Below, one piece after another: positions 20,161-58,365 of a DNA stretch of 64,000 nt; position 1 is the stretch's first letter, and every line of letters begins with the position of its first letter. This stretch comes from a virus. Below the pieces are notes generated by a model. It was not told the DNA's origin. It did no database searches and saw nothing but the letters and a program-made list of their open reading frames with translations. A program made the translations under genes and the position numbers. The stretch spans positions 20,624-84,623 of the IMG/VR virus record IMGVR_UViG_3300031707_000005, one strand, 5' to 3'.

Positions 20161-21600
20161 TTATTTAACGGTATTTCCTGTCATTCTGTTTATGAAACCA
20201 CGTGAAAATTCTTTCTCAGGAAGTGGTATCTTAGATTTGTCTAATTCCGTATTTGCAGTTATGGGCACGGACTGCTGAGGTGTATGGACGCTAGGTTCTA
20301 TTTTATGATCTAATGATGTTAACTTTTCATCATGAGTAAATTTAATACCATCAATCTCAAGCGGTCTCTTAGATGGAGGATCAGCTTTCATAGGAATAGG
20401 TTTCAATGCGGGAGACGCTGTCGGAGTTGAAGACTCAACTGGAGCGGATCTCAATTGGACTAATGGCACTACCAAACTCGTAAGACTTTGAACTACTGCA
20501 GGAATAATTACAGGAACCGGAACCGGAACCGGAACCGGAATTTGCTGTTGATGCTCAGACGCGCTAAAAACTGTCGCATCAACAGATGCGGTTCCAGTCG
20601 ATATTATGGCAGCCTCGATATCATGCGATGTCGGACGATCAAGAGCACCGAGAGCACGAGCAAGATCACCCCAACGAAGTCCTCGAGCAGGGAAGAAATT
20701 TGAGTTGACTGGGTAAGTGGCTTTAGCTCCGACAGCGACACGAAGAGAACTTGAAATGGCTGCAACCATATTATCACGAACCCAAGTCACACCATCATGA
20801 GAAAAAAGAATATCAAGGTCTTCAAAAGCTGTAGATGGGTCAGAGTCTAATCTTGAAAGAACATTAACAAGAAGTTCCATGGAGCCATACCGAAATAACT
20901 CTTTTACGAGTCTGTCTGTAACTCCACCAATTATGCGAAGCGTATCAAGAGATGTGAGACATGTGCGAGGGCAGCATTTATTATGTCTCGCAACAGTGTT
21001 TAAAGCTTCCAAGTCATACTGAATATTTTCCGCTCTACAAACAAATTCAAGTTTAGAAACAATTTCCTTTTCAGAAGGAGGAGATACAGGATACTCCTCC
21101 AAACGAGAGCGAATGGCCTCTCCAATCTTATGCGGTTCAGTAGTACAAAAAATAATTATAAATCTTCGGTCTTCAACTGCTTTCAAAAGAGCATCTTGAG
21201 CTGCTTTAGATAAACGTTGAGCCTCATCTAGGATGATGACTCTTGTTTTCCCATCAATAGACCCATATTCTAGGTCATCAATTATAGATCGTATGCGGTC
21301 AACCGTTCCCTGCGTAGCAGCATCAAATTCATCCATGCTTGATGATGAATCATGGACGACAGACTCGCATGAGTTACATACGCCACATGGTTCACCATCT
21401 TGTATATCATCGCACACTATTGCCATGGCAACAATGCGAGAAAGGGACGTTTTACCACACCCCTTCGGTCCACTAAACATGATAGACCGACCAGCAAGTG
21501 TACCGGTATGTGATCTACGGAGTAAAAGATTTACAACCCCGGAGTTCCCGACTACGTCAGAAAACTTCCGAGGTCTATACTTTAAGTCTAAAACTTCCAT
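20161..21600 (-). CDS. dnaX: Clamp loader gamma/tau subunit
   Basis: KYRPRKFSDVVG, GPKGCGKTS, PCGVCNSC, ILDEAQRLSKAAQDALLK, CTTEPHKI. Confidence 0.92.
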   Translation of the reverse strand: MEVLDLKYRPRKFSDVVGNSGVVNLLLRRSHTGTLAGRSIMFSGPKGCGKTSLSRIVAMAIVCDDIQDGEPCGVCNSCESVVHDSSSSMDEFDAATQGTVDRIRSIIDDLEYGSIDGKTRVIILDEAQRLSKAAQDALLKAVEDRRFIIIFCTTEPHKIGEAIRSRLEEYPVSPPSEKEIVSKLEFVCRAENIQYDLEALNTVARHNKCCPRTCLTSLDTLRIIGGVTDRLVKELFRYGSMELLVNVLSRLDSDPSTAFEDLDILFSHDGVTWVRDNMVAAISSSLRVAVGAKATYPVNSNFFPARGLRWGDLARALGALDRPTSHDIEAAIISTGTASVDATVFSASEHQQQIPVPVPVPVPVIIPAVVQSLTSLVVPLVQLRSAPVESSTPTASPALKPIPMKADPPSKRPLEIDGIKFTHDEKLTSLDHKIEPSVHTPQQSVPITANTELDKSKIPLPEKEFSRGFINRMTGNTVK

Positions 21601-24150: not shown

Positions 24151-24791
24151 GTTACGTCTCCGGATCCACCGGATCTAATCCGCTTAAGTTTTAGGCTACC
24201 GTCTTTATGACCTTCATATGCCACATGAGCATGAGATATGAATTCCGGATTATGGGTAACCATTAAGATATTGATCCCGGTCTGTTCCGATAACTGACGC
24301 ATAAAATCAGCACAAGAAGGAACATATCCATTCCAAAGAGCTGCCATTGACTCATCAAGCAAAAGAAGATTCCCCATACCCATACGGGCCATAACGGCGA
24401 GTCGAAGTACTAAAGAAATAACGACAGCAGCACCACCACCAAATGACGCAAGTGGATCACCCTCATTCCCATCTTCCTCAACTATGAAACGCATAGCTAA
24501 ACGATTCTTTTGAGGGTCTTGGCGAATATGGAAAGATAACTCTTGATCACCAAGGACATGCCTCAACCCCGTAGTAGCCAGTTGAGCGATGGAGTTCACA
24601 TTCTTGTCAAGAGAGTCTTCAAGCCAAGTTTTGAAAACTTCAGTACACTTCTGATGTAGATCAGCATTATATCTGAGACTTTTTTCTAAAGTTTCAGCAG
24701 CATCGGCTTGAGAGACAAGAATGTCCCTGTACGCTTTCAACCTGGAAACATCATTTCTTAATTGCTTCAGACGATCTAGTGACGTCATCAC
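24147..24791 (-). CDS. SbcC/Rad50-like ABC ATPase, C-terminal half only
   Basis: Signature SFGGG, Walker B LLLLDE, H-loop MVTHN; no Walker A. Confidence 0.8.
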   Translation of the reverse strand: MMTSLDRLKQLRNDVSRLKAYRDILVSQADAAETLEKSLRYNADLHQKCTEVFKTWLEDSLDKNVNSIAQLATTGLRHVLGDQELSFHIRQDPQKNRLAMRFIVEEDGNEGDPLASFGGGAAVVISLVLRLAVMARMGMGNLLLLDESMAALWNGYVPSCADFMRQLSEQTGINILMVTHNPEFISHAHVAYEGHKDGSLKLKRIRSGGSGDVT

Positions 24792-25918
24792 GTCCCTCTT
24801 TCTTTCATCGCCTGTAGAAAATGCCGTGAACGAACACTAAAAACTTTCACTCCAAGTTTTTTAGTGTCACATATTTCTAAAATTGTCGGGGATATTTTAT
24901 GTTGAAACCTAAACAGAATTTTTTCTGATTCAGTATATGAGATAACCCCAGCAAGTATATCCGCCGGGAAATCCGCAGACATCGAGTCACCAGATAAAAA
25001 TGAAATAGGAAGACTGGAAACTTCTTGACCATTACATGACATAGTCATGGAGCCATCAGACATCTTAAAAGAAACGCGACGAGTTCCCTCACGAGCCATG
25101 TTAGCCCACTGAAGAGCTTTAACTAATTGCGATCTATCAACTTCAAATTCAACGCCATACCCATCATCTGGAAGAACTTGAAGAGAAGGTTTATTACAGG
25201 AAATTCGACTAAATGATATAATTGACCCTGACTTAGGATCAGATAAAAACATCTTTGTTCGGTCCTGGCCGATTACAACATCATCCCCAGATGATTTTGA
25301 GCAAAAAGCTCGCATAACCGGAAGATCATCTGATACAATGGATAGCTCGAGAGCAAGGTCATCCATATATGCGACCGTTGCATAAGTACGAGCATTTGAA
25401 TAACCGCACTTTTCAGTCGGATAAAAGTGAACTTGATTCACTTTTCGGTCTTCATCTGTTTTCGTTTTTTTAACTAATGCAGAACACGAAAGCTGATGAA
25501 GAAGCTCTTCAAATTTTTTCGCGGAAACAGAAGAACCAGACATGGACGGCTTAGGTGACATTGGTGAGCGTCTAGCCGAATCGACACGTTTTTTAACAAC
25601 AGCTTGACGAGTTTGGCCATCACCATCAGCTTTAATCGTTAAACCTTTGTCATTAACAGATAATGTAACTTTAGTGAGCTCACTATCAAAAAATGCAGAC
25701 CTGTCAACAGACAAATAAAAATCGTCAGAAGAACTTCCGTCTGAGTCCGATGACTGAGATGAAACAACGGCATGAACCTGACGACGTCGGTCTGTTGAAT
25801 TAATCCAAAGATCGTTACCAACAACACGAAGAACATAATCTCCAGACATCGGGCGAACCAATTTCACCATAGCAAAACCACGACGTAAATCGTCGGGAAG
25901 AAAAAATAACTTCGTCAT
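24788..25918 (-). CDS. dnaN: DNA polymerase III beta sliding clamp-like protein
   Basis: 376 aa with three-domain periodicity (INSTD, VSAKKFEELL, FEVDRSQLVKALQ); clamp-loader genes are present nearby. Confidence 0.6.
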   Translation of the reverse strand: MTKLFFLPDDLRRGFAMVKLVRPMSGDYVLRVVGNDLWINSTDRRRQVHAVVSSQSSDSDGSSSDDFYLSVDRSAFFDSELTKVTLSVNDKGLTIKADGDGQTRQAVVKKRVDSARRSPMSPKPSMSGSSVSAKKFEELLHQLSCSALVKKTKTDEDRKVNQVHFYPTEKCGYSNARTYATVAYMDDLALELSIVSDDLPVMRAFCSKSSGDDVVIGQDRTKMFLSDPKSGSIISFSRISCNKPSLQVLPDDGYGVEFEVDRSQLVKALQWANMAREGTRRVSFKMSDGSMTMSCNGQEVSSLPISFLSGDSMSADFPADILAGVISYTESEKILFRFQHKISPTILEICDTKKLGVKVFSVRSRHFLQAMKERGT

Positions 25919-34421: not shown

Positions 34422-34937
34422 TCAGACTTGAATTTCACCGATATACGGAAGGTTCCGATGTTTCTCCTGATAATCCATACCATATCCAACAACAAACTTA
34501 TCTTCAATAGTAAACCCGGTATAATCGATTTTCACTGGAACTCGAGTTCTACACGATTTATGTAAAAGAGCACAAATCGAAATGGAAGCTGGTTCTCTAG
34601 TTTGAAGAATTTTAATTAAGTGTTGAATTGTAAGTCCAGAATCAACAATATCCTCAACAATAAGTATATCTTTTCCCTTAATAGACCGTGTTAAGTCATG
34701 AGTGATCATAATGGAACCGGAAGACGTTCCACCATTATACGAACTAATACCGAGAAAATCAACAAACGTATCCGGAAGCTTAATGGTCCGAATCAGATCA
34801 CCAGCAAAAACAAAAGACCCCTTTAACACAGGAATCATCGTTAATGGACTCCTAGCGAAATCCTGAGTGATAGCCTGTCCGATCCACGAAATGCGATTAG
34901 CGATACTAGACGCTGATATCAATTCGCGAATCGGCAT
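34422..34937 (-). CDS. hpt: Hypoxanthine-guanine phosphoribosyltransferase
   Basis: VLKGSFVFAGDL, ILIVEDIVDSGLT, FVVGYGMDY...RNLPYIG. Confidence 0.95.
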   Translation of the reverse strand: MPIRELISASSIANRISWIGQAITQDFARSPLTMIPVLKGSFVFAGDLIRTIKLPDTFVDFLGISSYNGGTSSGSIMITHDLTRSIKGKDILIVEDIVDSGLTIQHLIKILQTREPASISICALLHKSCRTRVPVKIDYTGFTIEDKFVVGYGMDYQEKHRNLPYIGEIQV

Positions 34938-35202: not shown

Positions 35203-38200
35203 TCAACTACAACCTGTCGTAGTTCCACATGAGGAACAAAGATAACAAGAACCATTACGTTGAGTTATGTTACCACAACGAGCACATGGAGGACCGCCAA
35301 GGTTCTTACGCGGCGTCTTTATCGTAGCATCAGTAGAATGTAACGGAGGCGGCGGTATTGAAGGCGGCGATGAATGGTATTGATCCGATACTTCATCCTT
35401 CGCAATGCTTTCATTAACGTCGTTGTCCGACTCATCAGAACGATTAGAAAGACCGGAGTGTTCCCCATTATAATAATGAACATCAAGAACTTTGAACATA
35501 TAATCATATAAACTCTTAGCAAACCGAACTTTCTTGTTCGTTGTCATCCCAGCGGGTTCAAATCGGGTATCGATGAAACTTGAAATAAGTTTCGGTAAAG
35601 GAATCCCGTATTGAATGGCAATAGAACAGAGCTGGGTGAAACCATCTATCAGACCAGATACAGTGCTACCGGGTTTCCCGAGTTTAAGAAAGATTTCACC
35701 CGGACGACCGTCAGGATACTCACTAACAATAAGATATCCCTTATATCCGTCAATTTCAAACTTATGCCGCCAACTCTTAACATCATTCGGCATTTTCTCA
35801 CGACGAACAACAGGAACTTGAATTTCACGAACAACTTCTCTGATGTTCATGTCAACGGCTTTTAAGGCCGCTTGCAGTGAATCCTTGGAGTCCTTCGTCG
35901 TGAGAGGCTGAGACGCCTTACACTTATCACGATATAGAGCTATACACTTCAAACCGAGACGCCACGATTCTTCATAAATCTTAGCAATCTCGTCAGAGGT
36001 AACGCTCTCAGGAAGATTAACAGTCTTGCTCATCGCACATGTAATAAGTGGCTGGATGGCAGCCATCATTTTGACATGCGCCATAGGCGATAGATACCGC
36101 GCCGATGGACCGGCAGGCATCGCAGTGTCGAAAACATGAATATGCTCGTCCTTTAGACCGGGAGCTCCTTCTATCGTGTCATTAGATTCGACATGATTGC
36201 AAATCTCTGCAACTTCATCTGTCGAATATCCGAGATTCACCAGGGCCTCGCGAACACCGAAGTTGATGAGCTTCATTACGCCGCCACCGACGAGCGACTT
36301 ATAACTCACAAGTGAAAACGCCGGTTCGATACCAGTAGTGTTCATTCCCATCAGGAACGATATAGTTCCGAGTGGGGCCTGCAGTGTGGCTTGAGAGATA
36401 TTATAGCCGTACTTTTCACCAAGAGAGATGGCTTCTTTCCAGACTTCAGCGGACAATGAAACCACGTCATCATTGACCGGATCCTTCGGAAGGTGCCAAC
36501 GCTCGATGATTTTTGCATCAGCTTCCTGATGCATTCGCATCACGCGAAGCATATCTTCACGGTTCTTCTCGAATTCAGAGAATGCGCCGACACGAGCAGC
36601 AAGCTTTGCTGATGTTAGATAAACAATTCCGGTCATGAGAGATGCCATGCGAGCGGCAACAGCACGACCCTCATCGGAATCATATCCATAACCGAGATTC
36701 ATGACGAGCGCACCAAGATCACCATAGTTAGTGCCAATGGGACGAAGCTTTATTGAATTAGACCCGATTTCGTCAGTCGGATATGCAGCCTTCGCAACAA
36801 TAGCCATCTGAGCGGTACTAAAGATTCTCGTGGCTTGAGTAAATCTCTCAGGAACAAATTTGCGGCCATCGAAAAACTTCGTCAGGTTAATCGCACAGAG
36901 ATTACAGGCTGTGTTGTCAACATGAAGGAATTCACTACAATTATGAGCAACAATCCCGTTTGCGATGAGCGAACTAGTTTCAGGCTCGGTAATGTCGTAA
37001 ACGGGAACAATCTCACCATTGTTAATCACACGGACAACATCATCTGTCCATTTATCGCGGCCGTTATGATTAATTGAATCAGGAATATCGGAGAATCGAG
37101 CTTGTTTCCTATCAGAAAGCAATCCGATTGATTTCATAAGATTTCTGAAAGTTTTAAGACTCTGGCCAGTGATAACAAGATCATTTGTCTTCTCTTTCGA
37201 GAAATACGTTCGAGTTTCGCCCGACACTGTCGTATATGAAAACGTCGGTTTATCGTTAGGACGACGATCTTTGTAAAGAGTGCTGTTAACACCAAGATTC
37301 AAAAGAAGATCCTGGACTCCGCGTAGAAGTTCAAGACTAGTAGAACTAAAACGAGCGTCAACATTCTTCTTCGGTTGAATATTGAAAGTCCCATCTGCAG
37401 AAAAAAGACCAGCAAGAAATGCAAGTTGTTCCTGAACTGTTGATCGAAAAACGGCATCCATGACTTTTTTAGTCGGAGCTTTAGACCCAGGTTCACAAGC
37501 CCAGACCAACATGGATTCCCAAATGGCTTTCCTGTGAATCCGAATATAATCCGGGCTTTCACCGACAGATCCATTTTGATATTTTTGAGAGAATGGGATG
37601 TCTTGATCACGGAAAAATGCAAGAATCTTATCCATTGCATCTTTGTCATCTTTACCAAAAACGAGCCCAACTTCGTGAGTATTTCTACAAGGAAGTGCTT
37701 TCAAGATCCATCCATCACCAACAATCCACCCAGCAATCTTGTGCCACATGAGATCAAGACCAGATGACTCCGTCGAGTATGCACCAACTCCGGCTTGCAA
37801 ACAAAGAACACTATCTTCCGTCAGATCGGATGCCTCTACCCACCCATCAGTCGTCATAAGACGATGATCAGGGGTTACCTTCAGTATTCTACCTCTTCTC
37901 GTATGAACTTCAACAACATTTTTCACACCAGTCGGAAAAACTGTGGCTGCTTTCAAAACAGGTCCATCTGGTGTTTGAACGAGAGTCAAAAATTTCGAAG
38001 AACAACCTGATGACTCGAATTCTGCACACAAATCTTCAATACGTACTAAGCCAAGCTCAGTGGCAATGCGAGTATCGGGATGGAAGCATGGATTTGAAGC
38101 ACGAATCTTCCCATTCTTTGGGGTAGTGTGCCACTTGTTTATATTGTCGGAGAATTGAACGCCCGGGTCACCACAACGCCACGCAGCATCGGCAACTTCT

Positions 38201-39219
38201 TTCCAAATTTCACGAGCTTTGTAGTTATGAACTACTTTTCCACTCTTACGCTCACGAGTTTGCCATGAACCGTCATCGAGCATGGTTTGCATAAACGCGT
38301 CAGGAACAGATACAGAGTGATTTGCGTTCTGATATGGAACTATTTTGTATGCACCATTCGGGTCGTCATACTCTGCAGAATAACCAATAGAAACAAGATC
38401 ATGAGCAAGCTTCTCCGACCACGACTTGCAACGAATGAAACCGGGACGACCATCACGTGTTTCAAGAATGTCAGGATGATCCATATCCATAACAACCATC
38501 TTCGCTGCGTTTCTCGTAGCACCACCCGATTTCATCGCACCAGCGTATGAATTATTCCCCTGCATCCAAGACATCGGACCAGAAGTATACGAACCAGCAG
38601 AAATCTTTTCATAAGAAGAACGGAGATTTGATAAATTAGCACCGGAGCCGGATCCACCACGGAAAATGGTAAGCTCTGACGTCTGAAAACGCATAATGTC
38701 ATCAAGAGAATCTTCAACACCAGAAATGAAACAAGCCGAAGCTGCTTGTTTACGACCTTCAACACCAAGGTTAAACCAAACCGGAGAATTAAATGCTCCG
38801 TATTGATGCAAAAGAGCATGAATAAGCTCTTCTTCAAATACTTGAGCATCAATTTCAGTATTGAAAAAGTTCTGTTCTTCCGCCCAATTTCGAATGGCAC
38901 AACAAACACGAGTAAACATTTGCTTTACTGATGTTTCACGAACACCATTAACAACACGAAGATATTTATCTGCTACAACATTTACGTTATTTTGAGTCCA
39001 CCAAGCAGGAACCTCAATATTCTTTTGTTCGAAAACAATCTCACCTTTACCATTACGAATACAGGCATCAGCAGTCTTCCATTCAACTTGGTCAAACGGA
39101 TGAGATCCTTCTGAGGTAAATACACGAGGCCAATGACCCGCATCGCGTGATATCAAGTCCTTAGTGGAGTGAGCCCTAAGGTTTACTACTGGTGCGGATA
39201 TAGCCTCAGTGTTTGACAT
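35203..39219 (-). CDS. nrdJ: Class II (B12-dependent) ribonucleotide reductase with intein
   Basis: FNSPVWFN, SACFI, KSGGATRNAAKM, SNP|intein|CSEF, CNL, APLGTIS, SKTVN, YRD, C-terminal CARCG...CSSCG. Confidence 0.93.
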   Translation of the reverse strand: MSNTEAISAPVVNLRAHSTKDLISRDAGHWPRVFTSEGSHPFDQVEWKTADACIRNGKGEIVFEQKNIEVPAWWTQNNVNVVADKYLRVVNGVRETSVKQMFTRVCCAIRNWAEEQNFFNTEIDAQVFEEELIHALLHQYGAFNSPVWFNLGVEGRKQAASACFISGVEDSLDDIMRFQTSELTIFRGGSGSGANLSNLRSSYEKISAGSYTSGPMSWMQGNNSYAGAMKSGGATRNAAKMVVMDMDHPDILETRDGRPGFIRCKSWSEKLAHDLVSIGYSAEYDDPNGAYKIVPYQNANHSVSVPDAFMQTMLDDGSWQTRERKSGKVVHNYKAREIWKEVADAAWRCGDPGVQFSDNINKWHTTPKNGKIRASNPCFHPDTRIATELGLVRIEDLCAEFESSGCSSKFLTLVQTPDGPVLKAATVFPTGVKNVVEVHTRRGRILKVTPDHRLMTTDGWVEASDLTEDSVLCLQAGVGAYSTESSGLDLMWHKIAGWIVGDGWILKALPCRNTHEVGLVFGKDDKDAMDKILAFFRDQDIPFSQKYQNGSVGESPDYIRIHRKAIWESMLVWACEPGSKAPTKKVMDAVFRSTVQEQLAFLAGLFSADGTFNIQPKKNVDARFSSTSLELLRGVQDLLLNLGVNSTLYKDRRPNDKPTFSYTTVSGETRTYFSKEKTNDLVITGQSLKTFRNLMKSIGLLSDRKQARFSDIPDSINHNGRDKWTDDVVRVINNGEIVPVYDITEPETSSLIANGIVAHNCSEFLHVDNTACNLCAINLTKFFDGRKFVPERFTQATRIFSTAQMAIVAKAAYPTDEIGSNSIKLRPIGTNYGDLGALVMNLGYGYDSDEGRAVAARMASLMTGIVYLTSAKLAARVGAFSEFEKNREDMLRVMRMHQEADAKIIERWHLPKDPVNDDVVSLSAEVWKEAISLGEKYGYNISQATLQAPLGTISFLMGMNTTGIEPAFSLVSYKSLVGGGVMKLINFGVREALVNLGYSTDEVAEICNHVESNDTIEGAPGLKDEHIHVFDTAMPAGPSARYLSPMAHVKMMAAIQPLITCAMSKTVNLPESVTSDEIAKIYEESWRLGLKCIALYRDKCKASQPLTTKDSKDSLQAALKAVDMNIREVVREIQVPVVRREKMPNDVKSWRHKFEIDGYKGYLIVSEYPDGRPGEIFLKLGKPGSTVSGLIDGFTQLCSIAIQYGIPLPKLISSFIDTRFEPAGMTTNKKVRFAKSLYDYMFKVLDVHYYNGEHSGLSNRSDESDNDVNESIAKDEVSDQYHSSPPSIPPPPLHSTDATIKTPRKNLGGPPCARCGNITQRNGSCYLCSSCGTTTGCS
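36940..38088 (-). mobile_element. Intein (383 aa) with LAGLIDADG endonuclease at the RNR catalytic Cys
   Basis: CFHPDTRIAT...IAGWIVGDGW...FLAGLFSADG...VYDITEPETSSLIANGIVAHN|C. Confidence 0.93.
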
Positions 39220-40135
39220 TCTTCACCTCCTCAGACATTCGAATAATTTCAGACTCTAAACCAAAACGAGCCGATTCATCACCGCGCTTATGCGCGACAT
39301 CTAAATCGCAAAGAGTATGGAAACTAACCATTAAAGACTTCCTAGACCACAGACCACATCTTGTAGATATAAACTTTTTGAAAACGAACGGATGAACACC
39401 GAGAAGTTCAGCTGCGCGATCATCTGAAAGTTTACGTTCAAGTGCTTCTTCAAGTTTAAGTTGTTGCAATACGTGACGTTGCATGTACGCAATAATCCAT
39501 CCAGTTTCTTCAGCTCGATCTTGTAACTTGTCATAGTAAGCAAGGGCCCTGACTGTATGTCCATCACATACAGCATCTATAACTTCACGCGGACTGATCT
39601 CCGCAGAGAAAATTATGAGAGAACGGGCTTCTTCTGGAGAAACAACGGTACCTGGAGAGGTTGCTGCGGCAAGTTTTTCAATTTCTGAATGAAGCTTACG
39701 CAGACACGTTCCTGAGTTCACAAAAAGAGCACCCGCAATCCTGCTTAGATCTATGTTAAAAGACTGGCCCTCTTTTAGAATCCACTTAGTTACTTCGTTA
39801 TTGTTACTGAATGACTTTAACTTCGGAAAAACAAGAGAACGCTTCGCTCTTTTATCTTGAAGTACACGCTTTCCTGAAGGAGAAACACATATAAGTGTAT
39901 CTATACCGGACTCAGGAAGATTTGGTATTTCTTTTACGTCCCAAAGGATAAAAACACGTGATATACCGGACATCAGCGGTACTTGTGAATCGTATGAATA
40001 CGATTCAAGTCCTTCAGGAAGAGTATATTCAATAACTTCAGAAGCTAGTGATGAAGCTGCTTCTTGTCTTGCTGCTCTCTCCATCAAGAAGTCTTCTTCG
40101 CCACTGATAAGAATGAGAGAGGACATGAGTATCAA
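39206..40135 (-). CDS. holA: Clamp loader delta subunit
   Basis: LILISGEEDFLMER, LHSEIEKL, LGVHPFVFKK, LCDLDVAHKRG. Confidence 0.82.
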   Translation of the reverse strand: MILMSSLILISGEEDFLMERAARQEAASSLASEVIEYTLPEGLESYSYDSQVPLMSGISRVFILWDVKEIPNLPESGIDTLICVSPSGKRVLQDKRAKRSLVFPKLKSFSNNNEVTKWILKEGQSFNIDLSRIAGALFVNSGTCLRKLHSEIEKLAAATSPGTVVSPEEARSLIIFSAEISPREVIDAVCDGHTVRALAYYDKLQDRAEETGWIIAYMQRHVLQQLKLEEALERKLSDDRAAELLGVHPFVFKKFISTRCGLWSRKSLMVSFHTLCDLDVAHKRGDESARFGLESEIIRMSEEVKNVKH

Positions 40136-40136
40136 A

Positions 40137-40940
40137 TTACATTAAGAGGTCGGAAACCATTCTCATCCAATGAACATCAGTATTGGCAGAAGTAGAATTA
40201 GATAAAACACTACAAAATTTAAGAATTGGAATCGATATAGACTTATTGAAAAAATATGGTTTACAAGCACAGCGAATCGTATGAATAACAGCATCACGAG
40301 TAAGACTATATCCATTTTCAAGATCGGATATTACTTTCGGTGGCTTTGAAAAAATAGACAGATCACGCTTTGCTGCAGAAATTATAGAGTTGTGAAGTTC
40401 TTCAAAACCACCGGTTTCCACAATTAGTTTATATAACTCCGGAAGACCACATGCCATCACAAGAATGTCGTTAGACACAGGAACGACGAGAGATGAAGCA
40501 TATTCTCGCATTTCGTCCATAGAAAGTGGTGTAAATCTGATTTCTGCACGGATTCTAGAAGACAGAGCTGGTTGTAAAAGGCCGACATCGTACGCAATAA
40601 GTACGATGACTACAGAATCAGGAGGAGACTCAGACAACTTCAAGAGAGCATCCTGCGCTGGTTCAGAAAGACGATCAGCATCGTCTACGAGAATAACTTT
40701 TACTAGACCACCAACCGGCTCAGTACGGGCAAATTCAACAACTTCTCGAGCTCCGTCGATACCGGATCCCATTTCCATGAAATCCGATTCATGGAAATCT
40801 CTTGAGAGAAGTACTTTAATAGAAGTACTTTGACACAAAAAACGAGAACCAGTAATAGCAATGACCGACGGATTATTCGGGTTTTTCCTCAACAGAAAAC
40901 TCTGGAGGCAGGATAGCTGGTTGTTGTTCCCCCGGTTCAT
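40137..40940 (-). CDS. holB: Clamp loader delta' subunit
   Basis: GIDGAREV, KVILVDDADRLSEPAQDALLKLSESPP, LQPALSSR; degenerate Walker A. Confidence 0.8.
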   Translation of the reverse strand: MNRGNNNQLSCLQSFLLRKNPNNPSVIAITGSRFLCQSTSIKVLLSRDFHESDFMEMGSGIDGAREVVEFARTEPVGGLVKVILVDDADRLSEPAQDALLKLSESPPDSVVIVLIAYDVGLLQPALSSRIRAEIRFTPLSMDEMREYASSLVVPVSNDILVMACGLPELYKLIVETGGFEELHNSIISAAKRDLSIFSKPPKVISDLENGYSLTRDAVIHTIRCACKPYFFNKSISIPILKFCSVLSNSTSANTDVHWMRMVSDLLM

Positions 40941-45403: not shown

Positions 45404-46150
45404 ATGATAAAGGCAACGAAAACGCCTAGGAAGACAAAGAAGGCTCCAGAGCTACCTAACGACGTCGAAATCAAAGAGGCGGTAGAGAAATGTATCAAGA
45501 GAATCGCGGGACCGGTTGAAGCATCATATTTACGCGTATGGCTTTTGGAAGTGGTCCGGAACAATGCTATCCCGATAAGCCTTCTTGAGTATCTTCCAGT
45601 CCCAGCAGCGGAAGTTGGAAAAACAAGATTTGATCAGTTATATGACGCTTCCATGGCTCTAGTATACCCCGGTTATTCGAAAGAAACGCTTGAAAGACTT
45701 CTAGGGCCTTCACCAAAAAAAGGCATCAAAATATGGAGGGTAATTCTTCCAGAAAAATTCAAGATAGCTCATGTCTTAATACGGGCAGAAAGTTTTCAAA
45801 AAGCGTTTGCTTTAGGGTGTGATTATACGTGTAGGATGTCTCTCCGCTTATACGGGAAGATACCGACTGATGTGACCATAAGAGTGATCTATATGACCGA
45901 AAGAGCTTTAAGAAGATATCTAGATTTAAAGTGGGCGAATAGAACATCACGTCGTAGAAAATTTAAACTCGAGGGTAGAGAAATAACGCAAAGGCAGATA
46001 AACGGGGTTCGTTTGTTTGCTCTCGGTTCTACGAAAAGTCCTTTGTATAGTGTGGCCAGATATTGTGAGAAAAAAGATTTGGACCGTGTAAGAAAATCAA
46101 AAGGACTTTCACGAGAGTCGTCTGTGGAGACCGAATCTAGGCAAGCGTAA
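45404..46150 (+). CDS. Basic hypothetical protein
   Basis: 248-aa ORF; TATAGT 6 nt before the ATG. Confidence 0.7.
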   Translation: MIKATKTPRKTKKAPELPNDVEIKEAVEKCIKRIAGPVEASYLRVWLLEVVRNNAIPISLLEYLPVPAAEVGKTRFDQLYDASMALVYPGYSKETLERLLGPSPKKGIKIWRVILPEKFKIAHVLIRAESFQKAFALGCDYTCRMSLRLYGKIPTDVTIRVIYMTERALRRYLDLKWANRTSRRRKFKLEGREITQRQINGVRLFALGSTKSPLYSVARYCEKKDLDRVRKSKGLSRESSVETESRQA

Positions 46151-46202: not shown

Positions 46203-47399
46203 ATGCAAGAGGGAAAACTGAACGTGTTGTTGGACGCATTCTGGGGGTCATCCGGTAAAGGAAAGACGTCCGCATGGCTTGCCGATAAATTCGGGGTAAC
46301 ACGAGTCTCAAGTTCAAATTTCCCGAATGCAGGTCATACAGCCGCATTTGAAGATGGCACGAAGTTCATAGCAAAAGCTATTCCGACGGCTGCAATCTTA
46401 AAGAAAGTTAAAGGAGTCGGGATGCAGTGCTGGTTATCTCCTGGTTCCGGATATGACTGGAATCAACTAATTAAAGAATGGGTTGAATCTGAAAAGCCGG
46501 AGATCAATATCCACTCACGTGCGTCAATCGTAACAGCAGAACACAAACAACGTGAAGCCAGTGGTTCAGAATCTACGAAGCATATTGCAAGTACGATGCA
46601 GGGTTCAGCCACAGCGATTGTTGACAAAGTCTTACGAAAAGCAGACTGTCAACTTGCAGAAACGATCGACCCGCGCATTATGATTGAGTCTCTATATGAG
46701 TCAAATCCAGTAACGCGTGATATTTTAGATCGTAGCGGAGCTTTACAAGAAATTGATCGAATTCGTGTTGTTGATGCGTTAGTTTTTCGTAAACTAACTC
46801 ATAGAGCACTTCGAAGCGGCCATACTTGGTTACATGAAGGCTCTCAAGGATACGCGCTTTCCATTGATCACGGATCTCATTATCCATTTTGTACGAGTCG
46901 AAACTGTTCAGTTCAAGCTGCCATGGATCATATGGCGGTTCCCCCGTCGATGGTAGGTGATGTTTATTTAAATCTACGAACTTTTCCAATTCGAGTAGGA
47001 AATGTCATTGAAGACGGAGTCCAAAAAGGTTTTTCCGGTGACTTTTATCCTGACTGTCGTGAAATGACATGGGAAGAAGTCGCGGCTGAGTCTGGTATGC
47101 CTCCTGAAGAAGCTAGAATGCTTGCTGAACGTGAAAGAACCACAGTTACGAAGAGAATTCGACGTGTCTGTAATTTTTCGTTTGAAGGACTTAAGGACGC
47201 TGTAGCAGTAAATGGCGCGACGAAACTAGTTATGAATTTTATTCAGTATATTAATTGGGAAGATGCCGGATGTGTTGAATTCGACAAACTTTCAAAAAAG
47301 AGTCGCGAGTTTATTTCGAAAGTTGAAGAAACTGTAAACGTTCCGGTCGTTTTAGTTGGAACCGGAGCACTTCATAATGAAATGATTAGTCGCTTGTGA
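46203..47399 (+). CDS. purZ: PurZ-like N6-succino-2-amino-dAMP synthetase (adenylosuccinate synthetase family)
   Basis: WGSSGKG (Ser where PurA has catalytic Asp in GDEGKG), NFPNAGHT, STMQGSA, EGSQG, YPFCTSR, FPIRVG, TTVTKRIRR, and NFIQY in place of PurA TKLD. Confidence 0.75.
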   Translation: MQEGKLNVLLDAFWGSSGKGKTSAWLADKFGVTRVSSSNFPNAGHTAAFEDGTKFIAKAIPTAAILKKVKGVGMQCWLSPGSGYDWNQLIKEWVESEKPEINIHSRASIVTAEHKQREASGSESTKHIASTMQGSATAIVDKVLRKADCQLAETIDPRIMIESLYESNPVTRDILDRSGALQEIDRIRVVDALVFRKLTHRALRSGHTWLHEGSQGYALSIDHGSHYPFCTSRNCSVQAAMDHMAVPPSMVGDVYLNLRTFPIRVGNVIEDGVQKGFSGDFYPDCREMTWEEVAAESGMPPEEARMLAERERTTVTKRIRRVCNFSFEGLKDAVAVNGATKLVMNFIQYINWEDAGCVEFDKLSKKSREFISKVEETVNVPVVLVGTGALHNEMISRL

Positions 47400-47620
47400 T
47401 TTGTTACGGGACCCAATCGGAGACCGTCTGGCTGCCTCAAGGACTTCCTGCAAAAATATTTGGACCATGTAGATATGAAGCGATTAAGCTTATCGAAGTA
47501 AAAAATCGCTTCATCAATAAATTAGTCATACGTCCTGCATGCAAGTCATGTATAGAAAGTATGGATTGTGTTGTCCTTGATGATGATTTATTCATCATAT
47601 GGGAAATAATGAATTCATGA
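47396..47620 (+). CDS. Small Cys-rich protein ending in the (V/I)MxS motif
   Basis: C...C...CKSC; ends IIWEIMNS*. Confidence 0.65.
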   Translation: MICYGTQSETVWLPQGLPAKIFGPCRYEAIKLIEVKNRFINKLVIRPACKSCIESMDCVVLDDDLFIIWEIMNS

Positions 47621-47856
47621 GTTCAAAAGTATTCGGCGTCGGCGACGTTACAATATGTTCAAATCAAGAAGAACTACGATTATATGTAGGTCATCTTGAG
47701 GTGAGTTACATTAAAAAACTGGAAGTGAAATTCGAGAATAATAAAGCATATATAGATGTATCGTTCTTCACCAGTCATGAACCAGAAACAGCTAAATCAA
47801 TAGAAGAAGCTGTTAGAACTGTCAAAACTATTCCATGGATTCGCGTTAATCCGTAG
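47617..47856 (+). CDS. Hypothetical protein
   Basis: ATGA-coupled to the upstream gene (MSSKVFG). Confidence 0.6.
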   Translation: MSSKVFGVGDVTICSNQEELRLYVGHLEVSYIKKLEVKFENNKAYIDVSFFTSHEPETAKSIEEAVRTVKTIPWIRVNP

Positions 47857-48427: not shown

Positions 48428-49777
48428 ATGACGACCGGGCCGGATGTCTTTTGTCTTCGAGGTGTCGATGGTCGACTCCTCCCGCCAGCTGTCCAAGCAA
48501 CTGTACTAGCTAAATATTCACGATCCCCATTATCAGCTCGCGAGATTGTTCAGAAACTGACTGAAGAAGAGGCTGACAAATTTCAGGAGAAATTTGTAAT
48601 TGAGTATAACCACTCAAGTGTAGCTGAGTTAGCAGCTATACCAGTTTGTTTTGAAGGAGTTTCAATCGTCGCGTCAAAATTCCTCGAGTCTTTTCAACGA
48701 ATGGGTTATTCCGAGAAGAGTACTAGATATCAAATTTTCACTAGAAACTCTTTTATCACCCCTCCAGGAGCTCCTTCAACTATGAAGGAATTCGCAGCCC
48801 GGTTTTATGACACATATGAACGTTTATATCCGCGTGTAATTCGTAGATGTGCAGAGCTGATGGGGAAAGACCCAAATGACCCAAAGGTATTAGAAGATAG
48901 AACCGTAAAAGCAAGAGCCTTTGATAATGTCAGATACCTCTTGCCTGCTGGCACAGGAACTAATTTGGCCGCTGTTGGATTTCTTCGTGATTTCCGCTAT
49001 ATGATTCAAGAGGCACGCGGACATTCAAACCCAGAGATTCGTGCTCTTGGTGATGATACTCATAAAGCCGTTTCAGAAATTTGTCCAGTTTTGGTTAAAA
49101 AAGCCGACGCGGACACCTTTGAACCGACGATTAAATCACTTGGAAATCTGCCATCAACCATAAATTTTGAGAAACCGTCATGGTATGTTGGTTTATATAA
49201 ACCACACACTCTCGGTGAACCGGAACTTGTCCAAAAAGCCTTCATTTCTACATTGGCTGATCGGTATGGAATGAGTTGGTCTGCATTCAGCAAACTCATG
49301 GAAGAACGTGGGAAAAGAGCCGTACCTAAAATTTTTCGGACTGTCAGAATATCATTCGATATGATGATGGACTATGGTGCATTTCGAGATTTACAAAGAC
49401 ATCGTCGTTGCGAACAGTATGTAGAACCGCTAACTTCACATTACGGCTATTTAGTTCCAGACGATATAATCGGTACTGACATGGAAGCCGAATACCGAAC
49501 TACGATGGAGCAGGTCCATTTATATGAAGATGATCGCGTGTCACATGACATGGACCTGATGCAGTATGTAATACCTCTTGGGTACTTACATAGATCAGTC
49601 TTCGAAATGGACCTTCAAGAGTTATACTATATGACTGAGCTCAGAACTCAGCCACAAGGACACATTTCATATAGAAGAGTCGCTTATGAAATGGCAAAGG
49701 TCGGCACGAAGTTGTATCCAGAGTTGATGCAGTGGTGTAAGGCGACTGCTCCAGATAACATCGGACTTCACACTTAA
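48428..49777 (+). CDS. thyX: Flavin-dependent thymidylate synthase-like protein with tandem Thy1 domains
   Basis: YNHSSVAELA, YSEKSTRY, RYLLPAGT, FRDLQRHRR, ELRTQPQGHISYR. Confidence 0.85.
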   Translation: MTTGPDVFCLRGVDGRLLPPAVQATVLAKYSRSPLSAREIVQKLTEEEADKFQEKFVIEYNHSSVAELAAIPVCFEGVSIVASKFLESFQRMGYSEKSTRYQIFTRNSFITPPGAPSTMKEFAARFYDTYERLYPRVIRRCAELMGKDPNDPKVLEDRTVKARAFDNVRYLLPAGTGTNLAAVGFLRDFRYMIQEARGHSNPEIRALGDDTHKAVSEICPVLVKKADADTFEPTIKSLGNLPSTINFEKPSWYVGLYKPHTLGEPELVQKAFISTLADRYGMSWSAFSKLMEERGKRAVPKIFRTVRISFDMMMDYGAFRDLQRHRRCEQYVEPLTSHYGYLVPDDIIGTDMEAEYRTTMEQVHLYEDDRVSHDMDLMQYVIPLGYLHRSVFEMDLQELYYMTELRTQPQGHISYRRVAYEMAKVGTKLYPELMQWCKATAPDNIGLHT

Positions 49778-52568: not shown

Positions 52569-53507
52569 CTAAGAATTGACAGCTTCTATAATTTTCTCAG
52601 AAAGTTGATCCGGTCCAGGAGCTTCGTCTACAGAAAGATGGAATCCGGCAGCTCGTTCGTGACCTCCCCCACCGTAATACTTAGCGATGACGTTAGCTGC
52701 AATCTTTTCGTTCGTTCTTATGGAAACGCTGATCTTCATCGCTCCGTCTTCGAACAAGTGAAAATAACCGATTGCTACATCAGCACCTTCATTTAGAAGT
52801 GTGTGCGCAACATCCGATATAATTTTTTCCGTGCAGTTAAAATAGGCGGTTTTCAGTTCCCCGATTTTGGTTTGAATTGGTTTCAAGTATGCGCCACGTG
52901 CAACAAGCTTCGTTTTACGTTCTGCTTGCTCGAGAAGAGATAAACCAAGACCACTTAATTCATTGAACTGAAAATCACCAGAACCGACTATTTCAATCAA
53001 TTTCTTCGAACCATGAAACTGAAGAGCCATTGCCTGCGCGCATGCTTCTCTCCATCTCGGATGGTCCTGTTTCCACGTATCTCGAATCATGGCGAGTTCA
53101 GCCAAATCTCTCCATCGGGCCAAATCTTGAATTTCGCCGTTTCCAGATCCTGCAATAGCAGAAAGAACATGATCATATGCTAGCATGGCTCCAGAATGCG
53201 TCTCATTTAGTCCATATATACCACCAAGACCTTCAGTCACCTGTTTGGCGGTTTCGTGGTGGTCTAGAATTATCGGAGAATACGCTTTCCATTCCTCCCA
53301 TCGAGGAATTGGTGGTGTGATATCAACGAAAAGTTGACCACTACGAGGCTCAAGCCTCGACATAAAATCAGTTCCATACTGAATCGAATAAAATTCAACG
53401 TCCGGACCAAGAGCGGCGCGACAAATCATCGCCGCAGCAGTCCCATCGGGACATGACTCATGGAACAGAACTTCCTTCACCATTTTTAATTGATCGATGG
53501 TTATCAT
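52569..53507 (-). CDS. DHH/DHHA1 phosphoesterase
   Basis: HESCPDG, FVDI, ILDHH, SIRT, YGGGGHERAAGF. Confidence 0.88.
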   Translation of the reverse strand: MITIDQLKMVKEVLFHESCPDGTAAAMICRAALGPDVEFYSIQYGTDFMSRLEPRSGQLFVDITPPIPRWEEWKAYSPIILDHHETAKQVTEGLGGIYGLNETHSGAMLAYDHVLSAIAGSGNGEIQDLARWRDLAELAMIRDTWKQDHPRWREACAQAMALQFHGSKKLIEIVGSGDFQFNELSGLGLSLLEQAERKTKLVARGAYLKPIQTKIGELKTAYFNCTEKIISDVAHTLLNEGADVAIGYFHLFEDGAMKISVSIRTNEKIAANVIAKYYGGGGHERAAGFHLSVDEAPGPDQLSEKIIEAVNS

Positions 53508-54493
53508 GGTATGTATGTTTCCTGTAGTTCTGGAAGAACAAATGATGGGTCCCAGTTTTTACCGACCCAGGATGGACTAGAGCATGTCTTTACAATAATG
53601 TCTATATTATTGTAAAGATCGTCGAGAGTCGAGTCATTGTTAATGATGAAATCGTATGCAGCGTCACGAATGCGAGTTTGTTCAGTTTCTGACCGATGAT
53701 TGAATGGAGGTTTCGTGACTGTCGGACGCTTAATTCTGATGAGCACCGGAACGAGAGTTTCATCTGCCGCGTTCTTAGCAAGACGGTGTTCATGAATATG
53801 GCGAAAATCAGAAAAACAAGTTATAGATAATAATTTTTCGGAGCCGAAATCCGAATTATAATATGGTGGACCCTTTAGTGTGATTCCATTTGATTTAGAA
53901 TAAACGCACCTACCAGCTGCGAGCATGCGATGGTCTTCGATGCCTTTCCGTATCCATGTATCCGCATAAAGAGTATTCATGAGCTCCATATACTTTTGGA
54001 GCGATTCTCGTGGAGAGAGCCACAGAACTGAATCACCTTCTCGAGCAAAGAAACGAAATAAATCTGCCGCATCTTTATTATTTATCTGATATGGTTTGTT
54101 TGTAAATAATGCTCCAATATGTGAATTTCGTTTTAACCATGACGAACACCATACAGGTCCGCTACCTGATATGAATGGCTTCCCATCCATATCTACGTAT
54201 GGTCTACCATGGTCGTCTTCAGCAGGAAAAATGTCATCTGGAACATCTCCTTCCCATGGTCGCAGTCGAACTTCATCGATGACCGGTTTCGGGTATCTTC
54301 GATCACCGGCATTCCGAAATGCCGATGGACCCCACAGTTGTTCATCAGAAAATCCGTAAGCGTCTTTCATATGACGCTTTCCCGGATCAGCTAAACCGGT
54401 GTGGACAGCACCATGAATTTTAACAAGCCTACCGGCACATTCGTCTTTGCCGGTTCCGGCCCATCCGGAAACACACACCATTAGATGTCGCAT
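53504..54493 (-). CDS. Deoxynucleoside monophosphate kinase-like P-loop protein with insertion
   Basis: SGWAGTGKD, LADPGK, SPRESLQ, SDFRH.HE, HRSE, IINNDSTLDDL. Confidence 0.78.
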   Translation of the reverse strand: MRHLMVCVSGWAGTGKDECAGRLVKIHGAVHTGLADPGKRHMKDAYGFSDEQLWGPSAFRNAGDRRYPKPVIDEVRLRPWEGDVPDDIFPAEDDHGRPYVDMDGKPFISGSGPVWCSSWLKRNSHIGALFTNKPYQINNKDAADLFRFFAREGDSVLWLSPRESLQKYMELMNTLYADTWIRKGIEDHRMLAAGRCVYSKSNGITLKGPPYYNSDFGSEKLLSITCFSDFRHIHEHRLAKNAADETLVPVLIRIKRPTVTKPPFNHRSETEQTRIRDAAYDFIINNDSTLDDLYNNIDIIVKTCSSPSWVGKNWDPSFVLPELQETYIP

Positions 54494-54513: not shown

Positions 54514-55203
54514 TTAGCGTCCGTCGACGCTTTTAATTTGAATAGTTCCGAAAGTAGATGCAGAGTACCAAAGTGCAAGGTCTACAATTCCGAGAGGAAC
54601 GTCATCTTCTTCTCTCATTGAACGGCACATCTCTTCACAATCTTTGAAACCCCAGTGTTCAGCCATACGTACAAGATGCAAGTCTGGTTTCACACAATTG
54701 AGAAGTCCAATATTTCTACCAAGATGGTACCTGGTTATCTTCCCTATGTACGGCAGTTTTCCAATTTCTTCCACGCTTGAAAGATTCTGGTTTTTCCAGT
54801 CACTCCATCCCATTTTATTATTTACGTCGTTTACTAATTTTTTCGCAGTTGAATGAATGGCTTTCGCTTTTTGAGGATTGTTGCAAACAAGTTTAACCCT
54901 CTTCATTACGTCATCAAATTTTTCAAGTCCACATTCGTCCCATGGGCTATATGCTTCAAGAAGTTTTGGCATAAAACTACCAACGGCTTTTGCTGAAAAG
55001 CCCGTCGCATGCACGACCCATATATACTCAACAAAGAAAAAATCAGGAGTTACATCTTCTAACTTAACAGAAGAAATTCGGTCTACTTCATCACCATAGA
55101 ATTTCTTCGCAAAGGCCATCGCCTTTTCGTAATAAGCTCGAGGTCCGGCTGAAATATCGGGTCGAAAATCTTCAGTTCCAGAAAGGATTCGATGTGGTTC
55201 CAT
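54514..55203 (-). CDS. HhH-GPD-like DNA glycosylase
   Basis: LPYIGKITRYHLGRNIGL..VKPDLHLVR, VDLALW. Confidence 0.65.
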   Translation of the reverse strand: MEPHRILSGTEDFRPDISAGPRAYYEKAMAFAKKFYGDEVDRISSVKLEDVTPDFFFVEYIWVVHATGFSAKAVGSFMPKLLEAYSPWDECGLEKFDDVMKRVKLVCNNPQKAKAIHSTAKKLVNDVNNKMGWSDWKNQNLSSVEEIGKLPYIGKITRYHLGRNIGLLNCVKPDLHLVRMAEHWGFKDCEEMCRSMREEDDVPLGIVDLALWYSASTFGTIQIKSVDGR

Positions 55204-55504
55204 CTTCGTATTCTAGGCAGAGAGTTACATTTTCATTCCAACTAAGAAAGACATCTCGTTTCCACTGCCCTGGAACAACATTACACTCGTCATCAACAAA
55301 TCCATTCCAACATTGTGAACAAAACATAGTACAACACCCATGTGCCGTAAATCTACGTACATTCTCATGGATGATTCCACACTGATGGCACGACCCTCTT
55401 TCTGGGTTCCATAAAACGTGTACCTCTTCCATACTTCTATCGTCAGAATAGAGAGCGATTGCCTCGACTTCTGGCCTTGCTATACACTTTCTAGAACGTC
55501 CCAT
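55172..55504 (-). CDS. Zn-finger hypothetical protein
   Basis: CHQC...CSQC. Confidence 0.55.
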   Translation of the reverse strand: MGRSRKCIARPEVEAIALYSDDRSMEEVHVLWNPERGSCHQCGIIHENVRRFTAHGCCTMFCSQCWNGFVDDECNVVPGQWKRDVFLSWNENVTLCLEYEDGTTSNPFWN

Positions 55505-55521
55505 CAGATGTAATCTCTCAC

Positions 55522-56034
55522 ATGTCCTTGAAAACGTTTAGTGTTCTGTACCATGAAGGCAGAGTCTGTTATCTAACTAATTCAGAATCTGAGTGGAAAG
55601 CAACCGTAGAATGCTACGGAGTCAAAAAAGCGTTTCGCTTTTCGTACAACGGAAAACATCCGATCCAAATTGGAGAATGGGTAAGATTTCGAGGTTCCAC
55701 CAAAATTGACTCTGAAAGTAAAAAGGGTGATGAATACTACCATAATCCTCATGATGACAGTCCGAGGAAAGTATGGGAATTTTTCGAAATGATTGATGGT
55801 ACAGAGGTACAAATCATTCCTACTCCAGAAATATTTCAGTGTCTCAAAAAGACCATGACTTATATCCGTCGTCATGTTGAATCATGGACAGCGAACTCCG
55901 GGTCAATAGAGCTTAAAGAGACAATATCCTCGTTAGAAGCAGCAATCGAAACGCTTCGACCAATATTACAATATCAAGAGAAAATAGAAGCTGATAGAAG
56001 TATTCGAATTGAAACGATAGACATCACGGTTTAG
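55522..56034 (+). CDS. Hypothetical protein
   Basis: gTAATCT-N5-ATG start. Confidence 0.7.
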   Translation: MSLKTFSVLYHEGRVCYLTNSESEWKATVECYGVKKAFRFSYNGKHPIQIGEWVRFRGSTKIDSESKKGDEYYHNPHDDSPRKVWEFFEMIDGTEVQIIPTPEIFQCLKKTMTYIRRHVESWTANSGSIELKETISSLEAAIETLRPILQYQEKIEADRSIRIETIDITV

Positions 56035-56257
56035 TCTTTTCTGTCGTGTTAGCTTTAACACCCATTCCGGCGAGGGCTTCGATGACCATTTGAAGATTTG
56101 CCTGTGGTGATTTATTCCTTATGTCAGGTATACTTGGCATGAGAAGCCCGTTTCTTCTCTTAAGTTCTTCAGAAGCACAGTCAAGGAGCTCAAAAAGCTC
56201 ATCATCATTAATTTCTTGAATTTTTGACTTGATTTCTAAAAGTATTTCGGAAAACAT
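56024..56257 (-). CDS. Hypothetical protein
   Basis: Start at MFSEIL supported by gTACAGT-N5-ATG. Confidence 0.6.
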   Translation of the reverse strand: MFSEILLEIKSKIQEINDDELFELLDCASEELKRRNGLLMPSIPDIRNKSPQANLQMVIEALAGMGVKANTTEKTKP

Positions 56258-56275
56258 ATATAACTGTACCACAAA

Positions 56276-56707
56276 ATGTCAAAATCGGAATTAAAAAGTG
56301 TTCATATCCATGATCGTATAAATTCTAATGGTTTTAACCTCGTAGTTCGTTTTACAAATGTTTCTTTCGTAGTTCCCTTAAATGATGGACTAAATGCTGA
56401 TGAAATTCTTCATTCCACGTACGGAACGATTTTATATACTGTGAGATCTGAAGTTACCTCTATACTGATATTAACCGAACACAAACCATTTTTGAGAGAG
56501 ATAATCAAAGATCTCATTTCGATACATACTAATGATAAAGTTACATTAGCTTTCAATGTGAAAAAATCGAAGTTATTTTTACAACGTTGGGAAGTGGGGT
56601 TGCTTCGAAAGTTTCTGTTAAGTTATGACCTTCCGAAAAAACTTCCAATTGAATCAGCAGTACAAGTAGTCAAAGAACTCTATGTAGAACAAGTCATGGA
56701 ATCATAG
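56276..56707 (+). CDS. Hypothetical protein ending in the (V/I)MxS motif
   Basis: Ends KELYVEQVMES*. Confidence 0.7.
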   Translation: MSKSELKSVHIHDRINSNGFNLVVRFTNVSFVVPLNDGLNADEILHSTYGTILYTVRSEVTSILILTEHKPFLREIIKDLISIHTNDKVTLAFNVKKSKLFLQRWEVGLLRKFLLSYDLPKKLPIESAVQVVKELYVEQVMES

Positions 56708-56710
56708 AGC

Positions 56711-57571: not shown

Positions 57572-57634
57572 TTAACCCGCTTGATCACAAGGGATTTAAA
57601 CGTTTAAACGTCTTTCAGTATATCATCCAGGACC

Positions 57635-57852: not shown

Positions 57853-58365
57853 TCAACCATTTCTTTCTACCAGGTATTGAGAGAGTGCTTTCGTATGTGT
57901 CGGAAATGCTAGTTCAGTATCTTGATTAGTAATAACGAGTTCTGAGACTTCAGAATTCGGCGTGAATTCTGATATGATATTGCTTGGAAGGTATGGAGTA
58001 CGACCGAAAATTATAATTCGTTCTTTATCCGTAGATGACTCAATACCGTCGAGTCTAAATAAACTTGGTGCTATATCAAGACCAGTTTCTTCTCGTAATT
58101 CTCTAGACATCCCTTCTTGCCATGTTTCGCCGATTTCTAAATAACCGCCTGGAAAAGCTAATTTTCCGAGTCCAGGGTCTCGAGCTCGACGAATCAAAAG
58201 AATACCGCCACCAATTATCACCTTAGCAACTACAACAGGTATCGGATTTTCCCATGAAGTTTGGTTGCAGTTCAAACACGTACGAGGAGACTCATACGTC
58301 ATGCTAACTCCACAGTTACTACAATAGTTCATATCAACGTTGCGACCGATTTCAAGATGCCACAC
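57853..58365 (-). CDS. Nudix hydrolase with N-terminal Zn ribbon
   Basis: CSNCG...CLNC, NPIPVV, PGGYLEIGETWQEGMSRELREETGL. Confidence 0.92.
   Translation of the reverse strand: MWHLEIGRNVDMNYCSNCGVSMTYESPRTCLNCNQTSWENPIPVVVAKVIIGGGILLIRRARDPGLGKLAFPGGYLEIGETWQEGMSRELREETGLDIAPSLFRLDGIESSTDKERIIIFGRTPYLPSNIISEFTPNSEVSELVITNQDTELAFPTHTKALSQYLVERNG

Follow-up and report, generated by a model that had tools for sequence, protein, structure and literature searches.

An uncultured sediment phage with a genome of ~400 kb encodes, in the stretch of DNA analysed here (64,000 nt, positions 20,624 to 84,623 of IMG/VR record IMGVR_UViG_3300031707_000005; hereafter the window), what we judge, with better than even confidence, to be a PurZ-type synthetase of a lineage that makes DNA containing Z (2-aminoadenine) by what is in essence the known route, using parts that have diverged and lie dispersed. 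PurZ is the enzyme with which small phages put Z in place of adenine in their DNA. Z-containing DNA is likely in this phage because candidate helper enzymes and a polymerase of family A are encoded in its complete relatives, and helpers that clear the nucleotide pool are probably encoded in this phage too, outside the assembled 20% of its genome. The gene in question is:

46203..47399, + strand: purZ-like gene, Ser-type adenylosuccinate-synthetase homologue (398 aa), identified from PF00709, PHROG 1211, NF038379, a residue map and a tree.

The source contig (G000) is linear, 84,623 bp long and ~20% complete according to CheckV, and its proteins are collinear with 227-308 kb of G004 (IMGVR_UViG_3300012980_000004), a 393,220-bp genome with terminal repeats and 100% completeness whose PurZ is 76% identical. 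Comparisons were made with complete relatives of 363-436 kb (G002, G003, G004, G006 and G008) and with two partial ones (G001 and G013). The original prediction of a large phage thus holds, and its genome can be put at about 400 kb. The phage recurs in many sediment metagenomes, and within a widespread phage lineage with genomes of roughly 360-440 kb, purZ is one of the core genes. The ORFs from about window 57170 to the contig end have no counterpart in G004, which marks window 56000-64000, with its Nudix gene, as a variable region.

The ORF is intact from ATG to stop and occupies exactly window 46203-47399 (+). Its product matches the Pfam adenylosuccinate synthetase family (PF00709, E 2.7e-34) and PHROG 1211, the PurZ family annotated as ‘2-aminooxy adenylosuccinate synthetase’ (E 1.4e-56). 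The top solved structure by sequence is phiVC8 PurZ (6FKO/6FM1, E 2.3e-32), followed by Pyrococcus PurA (2.6e-31) and S-2L PurZ (7e-31). PurZ NF038379 is the top NCBIfam model at 187 bits, below its cut-off of 300, followed by archaeal PurA NF003295 at 178 bits (cut-off 368); TIGR00184 (PurA) scores 128 bits (cut-off 395). Since the NF038379 and NF003295 scores are both below cut-off, profiles alone describe a divergent relative and no curated member. Megablast of the purZ region against 50,697 phage records returned no match; the top tblastn match to the protein in the same records is 34% identical, and all tblastn matches in cultured phages belong to PurZ or PurZ0 phages. In two metatranscriptome libraries, contigs span parts of the purZ of a ~93-96% relative; these were rejected as evidence of expression because DNA carry-over could explain them.

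In order to examine the nucleotide pocket, the protein was aligned with PurZ of phiVC8, Burkholderia and Acinetobacter phages, PurZ0 of Wayne and Frizzle, and PurA of Salmonella and Enterococcus, with residue roles taken from the metaGPA preprint (bioRxiv 10.1101/2025.10.22.683976). The motifs GSSGKG (residues 15-20), NFPNAGHT, STMQGS and NFIQY are present as originally predicted. S16 aligns with phiVC8 S14, where Ser replaces the catalytic Asp13 of PurA, and a Thr aligns with phiVC8 T262, a position held by Gly in Asp-type PurA; the query also has W14. In the ATP-type base pocket, F346 and Y349 correspond to phiVC8 F295 and Y298, and the query is identical to PurZ at phiVC8 W252, Y244 and P233. 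The guanine-specific Asp of PurA is Gln in the query, Asn in PurZ, and Asp in PurZ0 and PurA, and the Lys/Asp guanine motif of PurA (TKLD) is lost, with NFIQY in its place. The general catalytic residues are kept, including the P-loop Lys, Asn38, His41, Thr129, Gln224 and Arg residues. At four positions that the preprint treats as discriminating (Vp I34, P144, G256 and S273) the query differs from PurZ. The protein therefore has none of the marks of PurA (catalytic Asp13, (S/T)KxD, or scores above the TIGR00184/NF003295 cut-offs), nor does it show those of PurZ0 (a GSEAKG P-loop, a retained base-motif Asp and DutZ/DmtZ partners). Judged by alignment, its predicted pocket is nearer to that of ATP-type PurZ than to that of PurZ0.

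Homologues are numerous: 1668 proteins match the query at E<=1e-10, several of them on contigs of 300-445 kb, and the best 120 of the 1668 are each at least 62% identical to it. We retrieved 269 homologues, comprising 120 close sequences and 150 representatives at 50% identity, to E 1e-35. Readable P-loops among the 269 follow GS[STCEG]GKG, with Ser at the Asp13 position and the PurA Asp in none. A quick IQ-TREE phylogeny of 77 sequences (LG+C20, SH-aLRT; built without archaeal PurA, and with its deep branches not starred) sets 74 Ser-type proteins apart from three Asp-type PurAs with a support of 100, and pairs the query with the G004 PurZ (98). The huge-phage sequences, including the query, form a separate group of 39 rows (94) outside the clade of characterised PurZ, adjoining a 15-row group (92) that contains both classical PurZ and PurZ0. 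Together, the residues and the tree identify the protein as a third lineage of the PurZ group. The assignment to PurZ rather than PurA made in the original prediction is thus borne out by residues, tree and profile matches, and the phylogeny against PurA, PurZ and PurZ0 proposed there as a check places the query in the Ser-type clade, separate from Asp-type PurA.

Several other members of the wider family were recorded during these searches. The PurZ-like homologues P0121, P0123, P0124 and L051 (G011), of 786-1197 aa, align with the query over two to four stretches and probably contain inteins. In a 735-kb uncultured phage (LR756503, locus L011) the PurA homologue is of the Asp type (GDEGKG) and falls with bacterial PurA, so both kinds of enzyme occur in huge phages. 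A more distant huge-phage group (G005, G007, G009 and G010; loci L036, L046, L039 and L050) encodes PurZ proteins that are 40-43% identical, and these genomes have DnaE, one or two dUTPase-family genes and weak NDT-like matches, without a DatZ-like gene, a gene set that resembles the DutZ/DmtZ helpers of PurZ0 phages. A profile search of 185,579 prokaryote species genomes recovered the lineage on two MAG contigs (Methylobacter and Lentisphaeria), along with one classical PurZ contig; the two MAG contigs are probably binned phage DNA, and no host is inferable from them.

Gene order across related loci places purZ in a conserved module, in which a gene for a 248-aa protein, purZ, a small ORF and thyX follow one another. 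Its other members in the window are:

45404..46150, + strand: conserved upstream neighbour (248 aa), directly upstream of purZ in related loci.
47599..47856, + strand: small conserved ORF (85 aa) downstream of purZ, with tblastn matches at related loci.
48428..49777, + strand: thyX, flavin-dependent thymidylate synthase (PF02511, 5.9e-31).

In 17 related loci the immediate upstream neighbour of purZ, on its own strand, is the 248-aa gene, and in L003 this gene is close by on the opposite strand; its product returned no usable match in Pfam, PHROG or the ESM Atlas, or by Foldseek with an AlphaFold2 model (pLDDT 70). Counterparts of the 85-aa ORF, 29-58% identical by tblastn, occur downstream of purZ at 10 related loci; the ORF has no Pfam or PHROG family match. 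In 16 related loci thyX (44-78% identity) follows purZ at a distance of 1-8 kb. No homologue of p26, the small protein that follows PurZ in phiVC8, was found in the contig or in G004. In the X18 DNA contig, from a ~93-96% relative, 243 bases of window 47386-47630 are replaced by 33 others; the 74-aa ORF at 47396-47620 is lost as a result and is thus unlikely to be a conserved gene.

Further genes of nucleotide metabolism in the window are:

34422..34937, - strand: phosphoribosyltransferase, HPRT-like (PF00156, 97.8 bits; G000 55090-55509 = window 34467-34886).
35203..39219, - strand: class II ribonucleotide reductase NrdJ with an intein (PF02867 1.2e-103, PF08471, PF14890, PF14528; phrog_84).
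53504..54493, - strand: possible dNMP kinase, a weak match (PF21448 DNMK, 20.9 bits against a cut-off of 27.1).
57853..58365, - strand: Nudix hydrolase (PF00293, 47.9 bits).

The NrdJ intein, with a LAGLIDADG endonuclease, covers residues 377-760 or thereabouts; at 952 aa, the orthologue in G004 appears to be intein-free. The Nudix gene occupies a different place in G004 and G003; searches of G002 and G006 did not find it. The first reading of the window had named Nudix, HPRT, NrdJ and a dNMP kinase as possible helpers of Z synthesis; the first three are present, the kinase match is sub-threshold, and no link of these genes to Z synthesis emerged. An NAD-dependent DNA ligase is apparently split between opposite strands, with the adenylation and OB part (phrog_3869) in one gene and an HhH+BRCT protein in the other (window 33100-34218 (+) and 31587-32390 (-)).

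Candidates for the dedicated helpers of Z synthesis come from the relatives. The first reading recognised no DatZ or MazZ in the window, and domain searches likewise found no HD, MazG or DUF550 domain across the whole 84.6-kb contig. The relatives do carry DatZ-like and MazG-like genes, and the suggestion that the phage uses different helpers in place of DatZ and MazZ is not supported. One gene matching the DatZ PHROG 7076 is present in each of the complete genomes G002, G003, G004, G006 and G008 and the partial genomes G001 and G013, at E-values of 1e-17 to 1e-23; six small classical PurZ contigs, which served as controls for the helper searches, gave 1e-21 to 1e-35. The G004 protein (204 aa; G004 93584-94198) matches the YfbR-like family PF12917, the DatZ-defining domain, with 87 bits and in pairwise comparison resembles the E. 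coli dNMP nucleotidase YfbR more than phiVC8 DatZ. Tyr/Phe-x-Ser occupies the DatZ specificity positions (W20 and I22 of S-2L) in the proteins of the huge phages, and the HD...D metal residues are kept. In this context, Tyr20-Thr/Ser22 is reportedly prevalent in YfbR-like proteins of contigs experimentally enriched for dZ (bioRxiv 10.1101/2025.10.22.683976). The same study expressed the PMBT28 genes together in E. coli and measured dZ in plasmid DNA.

In six of the seven relatives (G001, G002, G003, G004, G006 and G013) the DatZ-like gene adjoins a MazG-like gene of ~165 aa, whose product retains a GEAGE...ELPDV (ExxE...ExxD) motif. Its matches to MazG-like Pfam families are sub-threshold (PF12643 23.7 against a cut-off of 27), and above threshold in G013. 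An AlphaFold2 model has a pLDDT of 80-96 across the helical core, and its best Foldseek matches are DCTPP1/RS21-C6 (E 7e-3, prob 1.0, TM 0.68) and iMazG, with S-2L MazZ only at rank 37. MazZ of the DUF550 type was found in none of the huge genomes and in all six classical PurZ controls. The DatZ-like/MazG-like pair is about 200 kb from purZ in complete relatives, and it is carried by genomes whose PurZ proteins are 57-76% identical. In G004 only, the MazG-like protein is fused to a C-terminal multiubiquitin domain (PF14452; Foldseek 9CD2; L095:14195-14908, G004 94195-94908). Among five genomes checked, a PurB-type lyase (Lyase_1, 478 aa) was found in G003 and not in G000, G002, G004 or G006; it lies about 1 kb from a Nudix gene (L131, G003 80635-84480). 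A search for the PurZ0 helpers DutZ/DmtZ found no NDT domain in close relatives, and dUTPase only in G006 and G001.

The window also encodes replication proteins, a DnaG-like primase and a FEN nuclease together with the following sliding-clamp and clamp-loader genes:

20161..21600, - strand: DnaX-like clamp-loader ATPase (PF13177 86.5 bits, and AAA).
24788..25918, - strand: beta-clamp-like protein, a weak match (PF02768 25.1 bits, cut-off 27).
39206..40940, - strand: delta (HolA-like) and delta' (HolB-like) clamp-loader subunits (PF21694 44.8 and PF13177 42.2 bits; phrog_5846).

DnaE and PolA domains are both absent from the 84.6-kb contig. Every complete close relative, along with two partial ones, encodes, about 200 kb away from purZ, a PolA of ~960 aa (PF00476, E about 1e-66). 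Pfam searches and tblastn with the relatives' DnaE detected no DnaE, PHP or PolB in G002, G003, G004 or G006, and no DnaE was detected in G008, for which the polymerase searches covered DnaE and PolA; DnaE is present in the partial relatives G001 and G013. Pairwise comparison of the G004 PolA gave a match to Wayne DpoZ at 1.2e-8 only and none to DpoZ of phiVC8, Bm1 or the Acinetobacter phage, and the database phages nearest to the relatives' PolA carry generic PolA at 22-37% identity. Of the Pol III-type replisome first described for this phage, the clamp loader and clamp therefore stand, and Pol III alpha is found only in some relatives (G001 and G013). The idea of a different polymerase class is not supported, given that the complete relatives have PolA and that the four tested for DnaE, PolB and PHP, including the closest, have none of them; that idea, like the one of different helpers, arose mainly because only ~20% of the genome was read.

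From these parts a pathway can be proposed that would follow the known one. A MazG-like enzyme would contribute dGMP and remove dATP, and a DatZ-like HD enzyme would remove dATP or dAMP. PurZ is predicted to join dGMP and aspartate, with ATP, to yield dSMP (N6-succino-2-amino-2'-deoxyadenylate), which a PurB lyase (from the host, or phage-encoded in some relatives) and kinases could convert to dZTP. Incorporation of dZTP would fall to the polymerase, presumably PolA and in some relatives possibly DnaE. The substrate and activity of the enzyme, the helpers of this genome and Z in its virion DNA are in this scheme what we infer from sequence features, phylogenetic position and the gene content of relatives, all three of which are directly observed. 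A broader proposal, to which we give slightly less than even chances, is that the ~360-440 kb sediment and freshwater phages are fully Z-substituted by means of a third PurZ lineage, independently recruited and dispersed helpers (a Tyr/Ser-type YfbR-like dATPase and a DCTPP1-like MazG), and a family A polymerase, not a DpoZ, that acts together with a clamp and clamp loader of bacterial type.

Other readings of the same genes were weighed against this pathway. It is unlikely that the enzyme is PurZ-type and that Z replaces A only partly, or that dZ serves pool manipulation or anti-defence, with a helper set that is incomplete or differently specific. Such a set would fit the failure to find a DUF550 MazZ, the resemblance of the HD protein to the dNMP nucleotidase YfbR, a PolA that is not close to DpoZ, and helpers dispersed rather than clustered with purZ; against it stands the retention of the DatZ-like/MazG-like pair across genomes in which PurZ itself has diverged so far. 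S-2L is without DpoZ, yet fully substituted, which also counts against partial substitution. We consider it likewise unlikely that the protein is an auxiliary purine enzyme that uses another substrate (for example IMP or dIMP with ATP) for adenine nucleotide supply, with no DNA modification. The replacement of the catalytic Asp by Ser in every member, the fully supported split from Asp-type PurA and the co-occurrence of a DatZ-like gene all argue for PurZ instead, even though the PurZ and archaeal PurA profile scores are similar and both sub-cut-off, true PurA exists in huge phages such as the 735-kb phage with GDEGKG, and the neighbourhood (NrdJ, ThyX and a PRTase) is one of general nucleotide metabolism.

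It appears very improbable that Z-DNA is made by a DnaE-containing replisome of the Pol III type, aided by Nudix, PRTase and dNMP kinase as unconventional helpers, in the absence of DatZ and MazZ. The window does hold clamp-loader and clamp genes and a Nudix gene, and the DnaE of the partial genomes G001 and G013 means that the missing 80% of this genome could hold one. The closest complete relative, G004, nevertheless has PolA and no DnaE, PHP or PolB, as do G002, G003 and G006, and G008 agrees; DatZ-like and MazG-like genes exist in the relatives, and the Nudix gene has another location in G004 and G003, with none found in G002 and G006. The preferred reading is thus a PurZ-type enzyme serving a pathway of the known kind.

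Compared with classical PurZ (phiVC8, Acinetobacter, Burkholderia and S-2L; 6FKO/6FM1 and 7ODX), the query shares the Ser in place of Asp13, the dGMP-pocket S14/T262, the ATP-stacking F295/Y298, the loss of TKxD and the size of a short archaeal-type scaffold, but is only 32-34% identical and has the P-loop GSSGKG rather than GSTGKG. PurZ0 of Arthrobacter and Gordonia phages (Wayne, Ghobes and Archimedes; 7VF6) belongs to the same Ser-type superclade and is 25-28% identical to the query; it has GSEAKG and a guanine-motif Asp where the query has Gln. Archaeal short PurA (Pyrococcus horikoshii, 5K7X/2D7U) is similar in length and overall profile score, but keeps the catalytic Asp and uses IMP and GTP, whereas the query has Ser. 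Among the helpers, the HD protein of the relatives belongs to the same HD/YfbR-like family as DatZ of S-2L and phiVC8, with Tyr/Phe-x-Ser in place of Trp-x-Ile, and the MazG-like protein shares ExxE...ExxD with S-2L MazZ (7ODY), although its fold is nearest to DCTPP1/iMazG. Unlike in classical Z-phages, the helpers of the relatives are dispersed and lack a DUF550 MazZ, and the phage genome is about ten times larger. What sets this system apart from the classical one is a separate PurZ lineage, variant helpers, the absence of a gene cluster and a roughly tenfold larger genome.

Our literature search turned up no article that connects PurZ with phages called jumbo, huge, mega or giant, and a 2026 NAR survey of NCBI viruses distinguishes seven Z-phage groups without mention of huge phages. 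The characterised Z-genome phages that we retrieved are roughly 30-70 kb in size. If these phages do have Z-substituted DNA, engineering of Z-DNA would gain a PurZ branch, a Tyr/Ser-type DatZ-like enzyme and a MazG-like pyrophosphatase, and part of the huge-phage DNA in the environment may give abnormal results with restriction enzymes and nanopore basecalling. It would also mean that the pathway works without a clustered purZ-datZ-mazZ-dpoZ cassette. If phages of ~400 kb are indeed Z-substituted, theirs would be by far the largest Z-substituted genomes known, and the size range of non-canonical genomes would be extended about tenfold.
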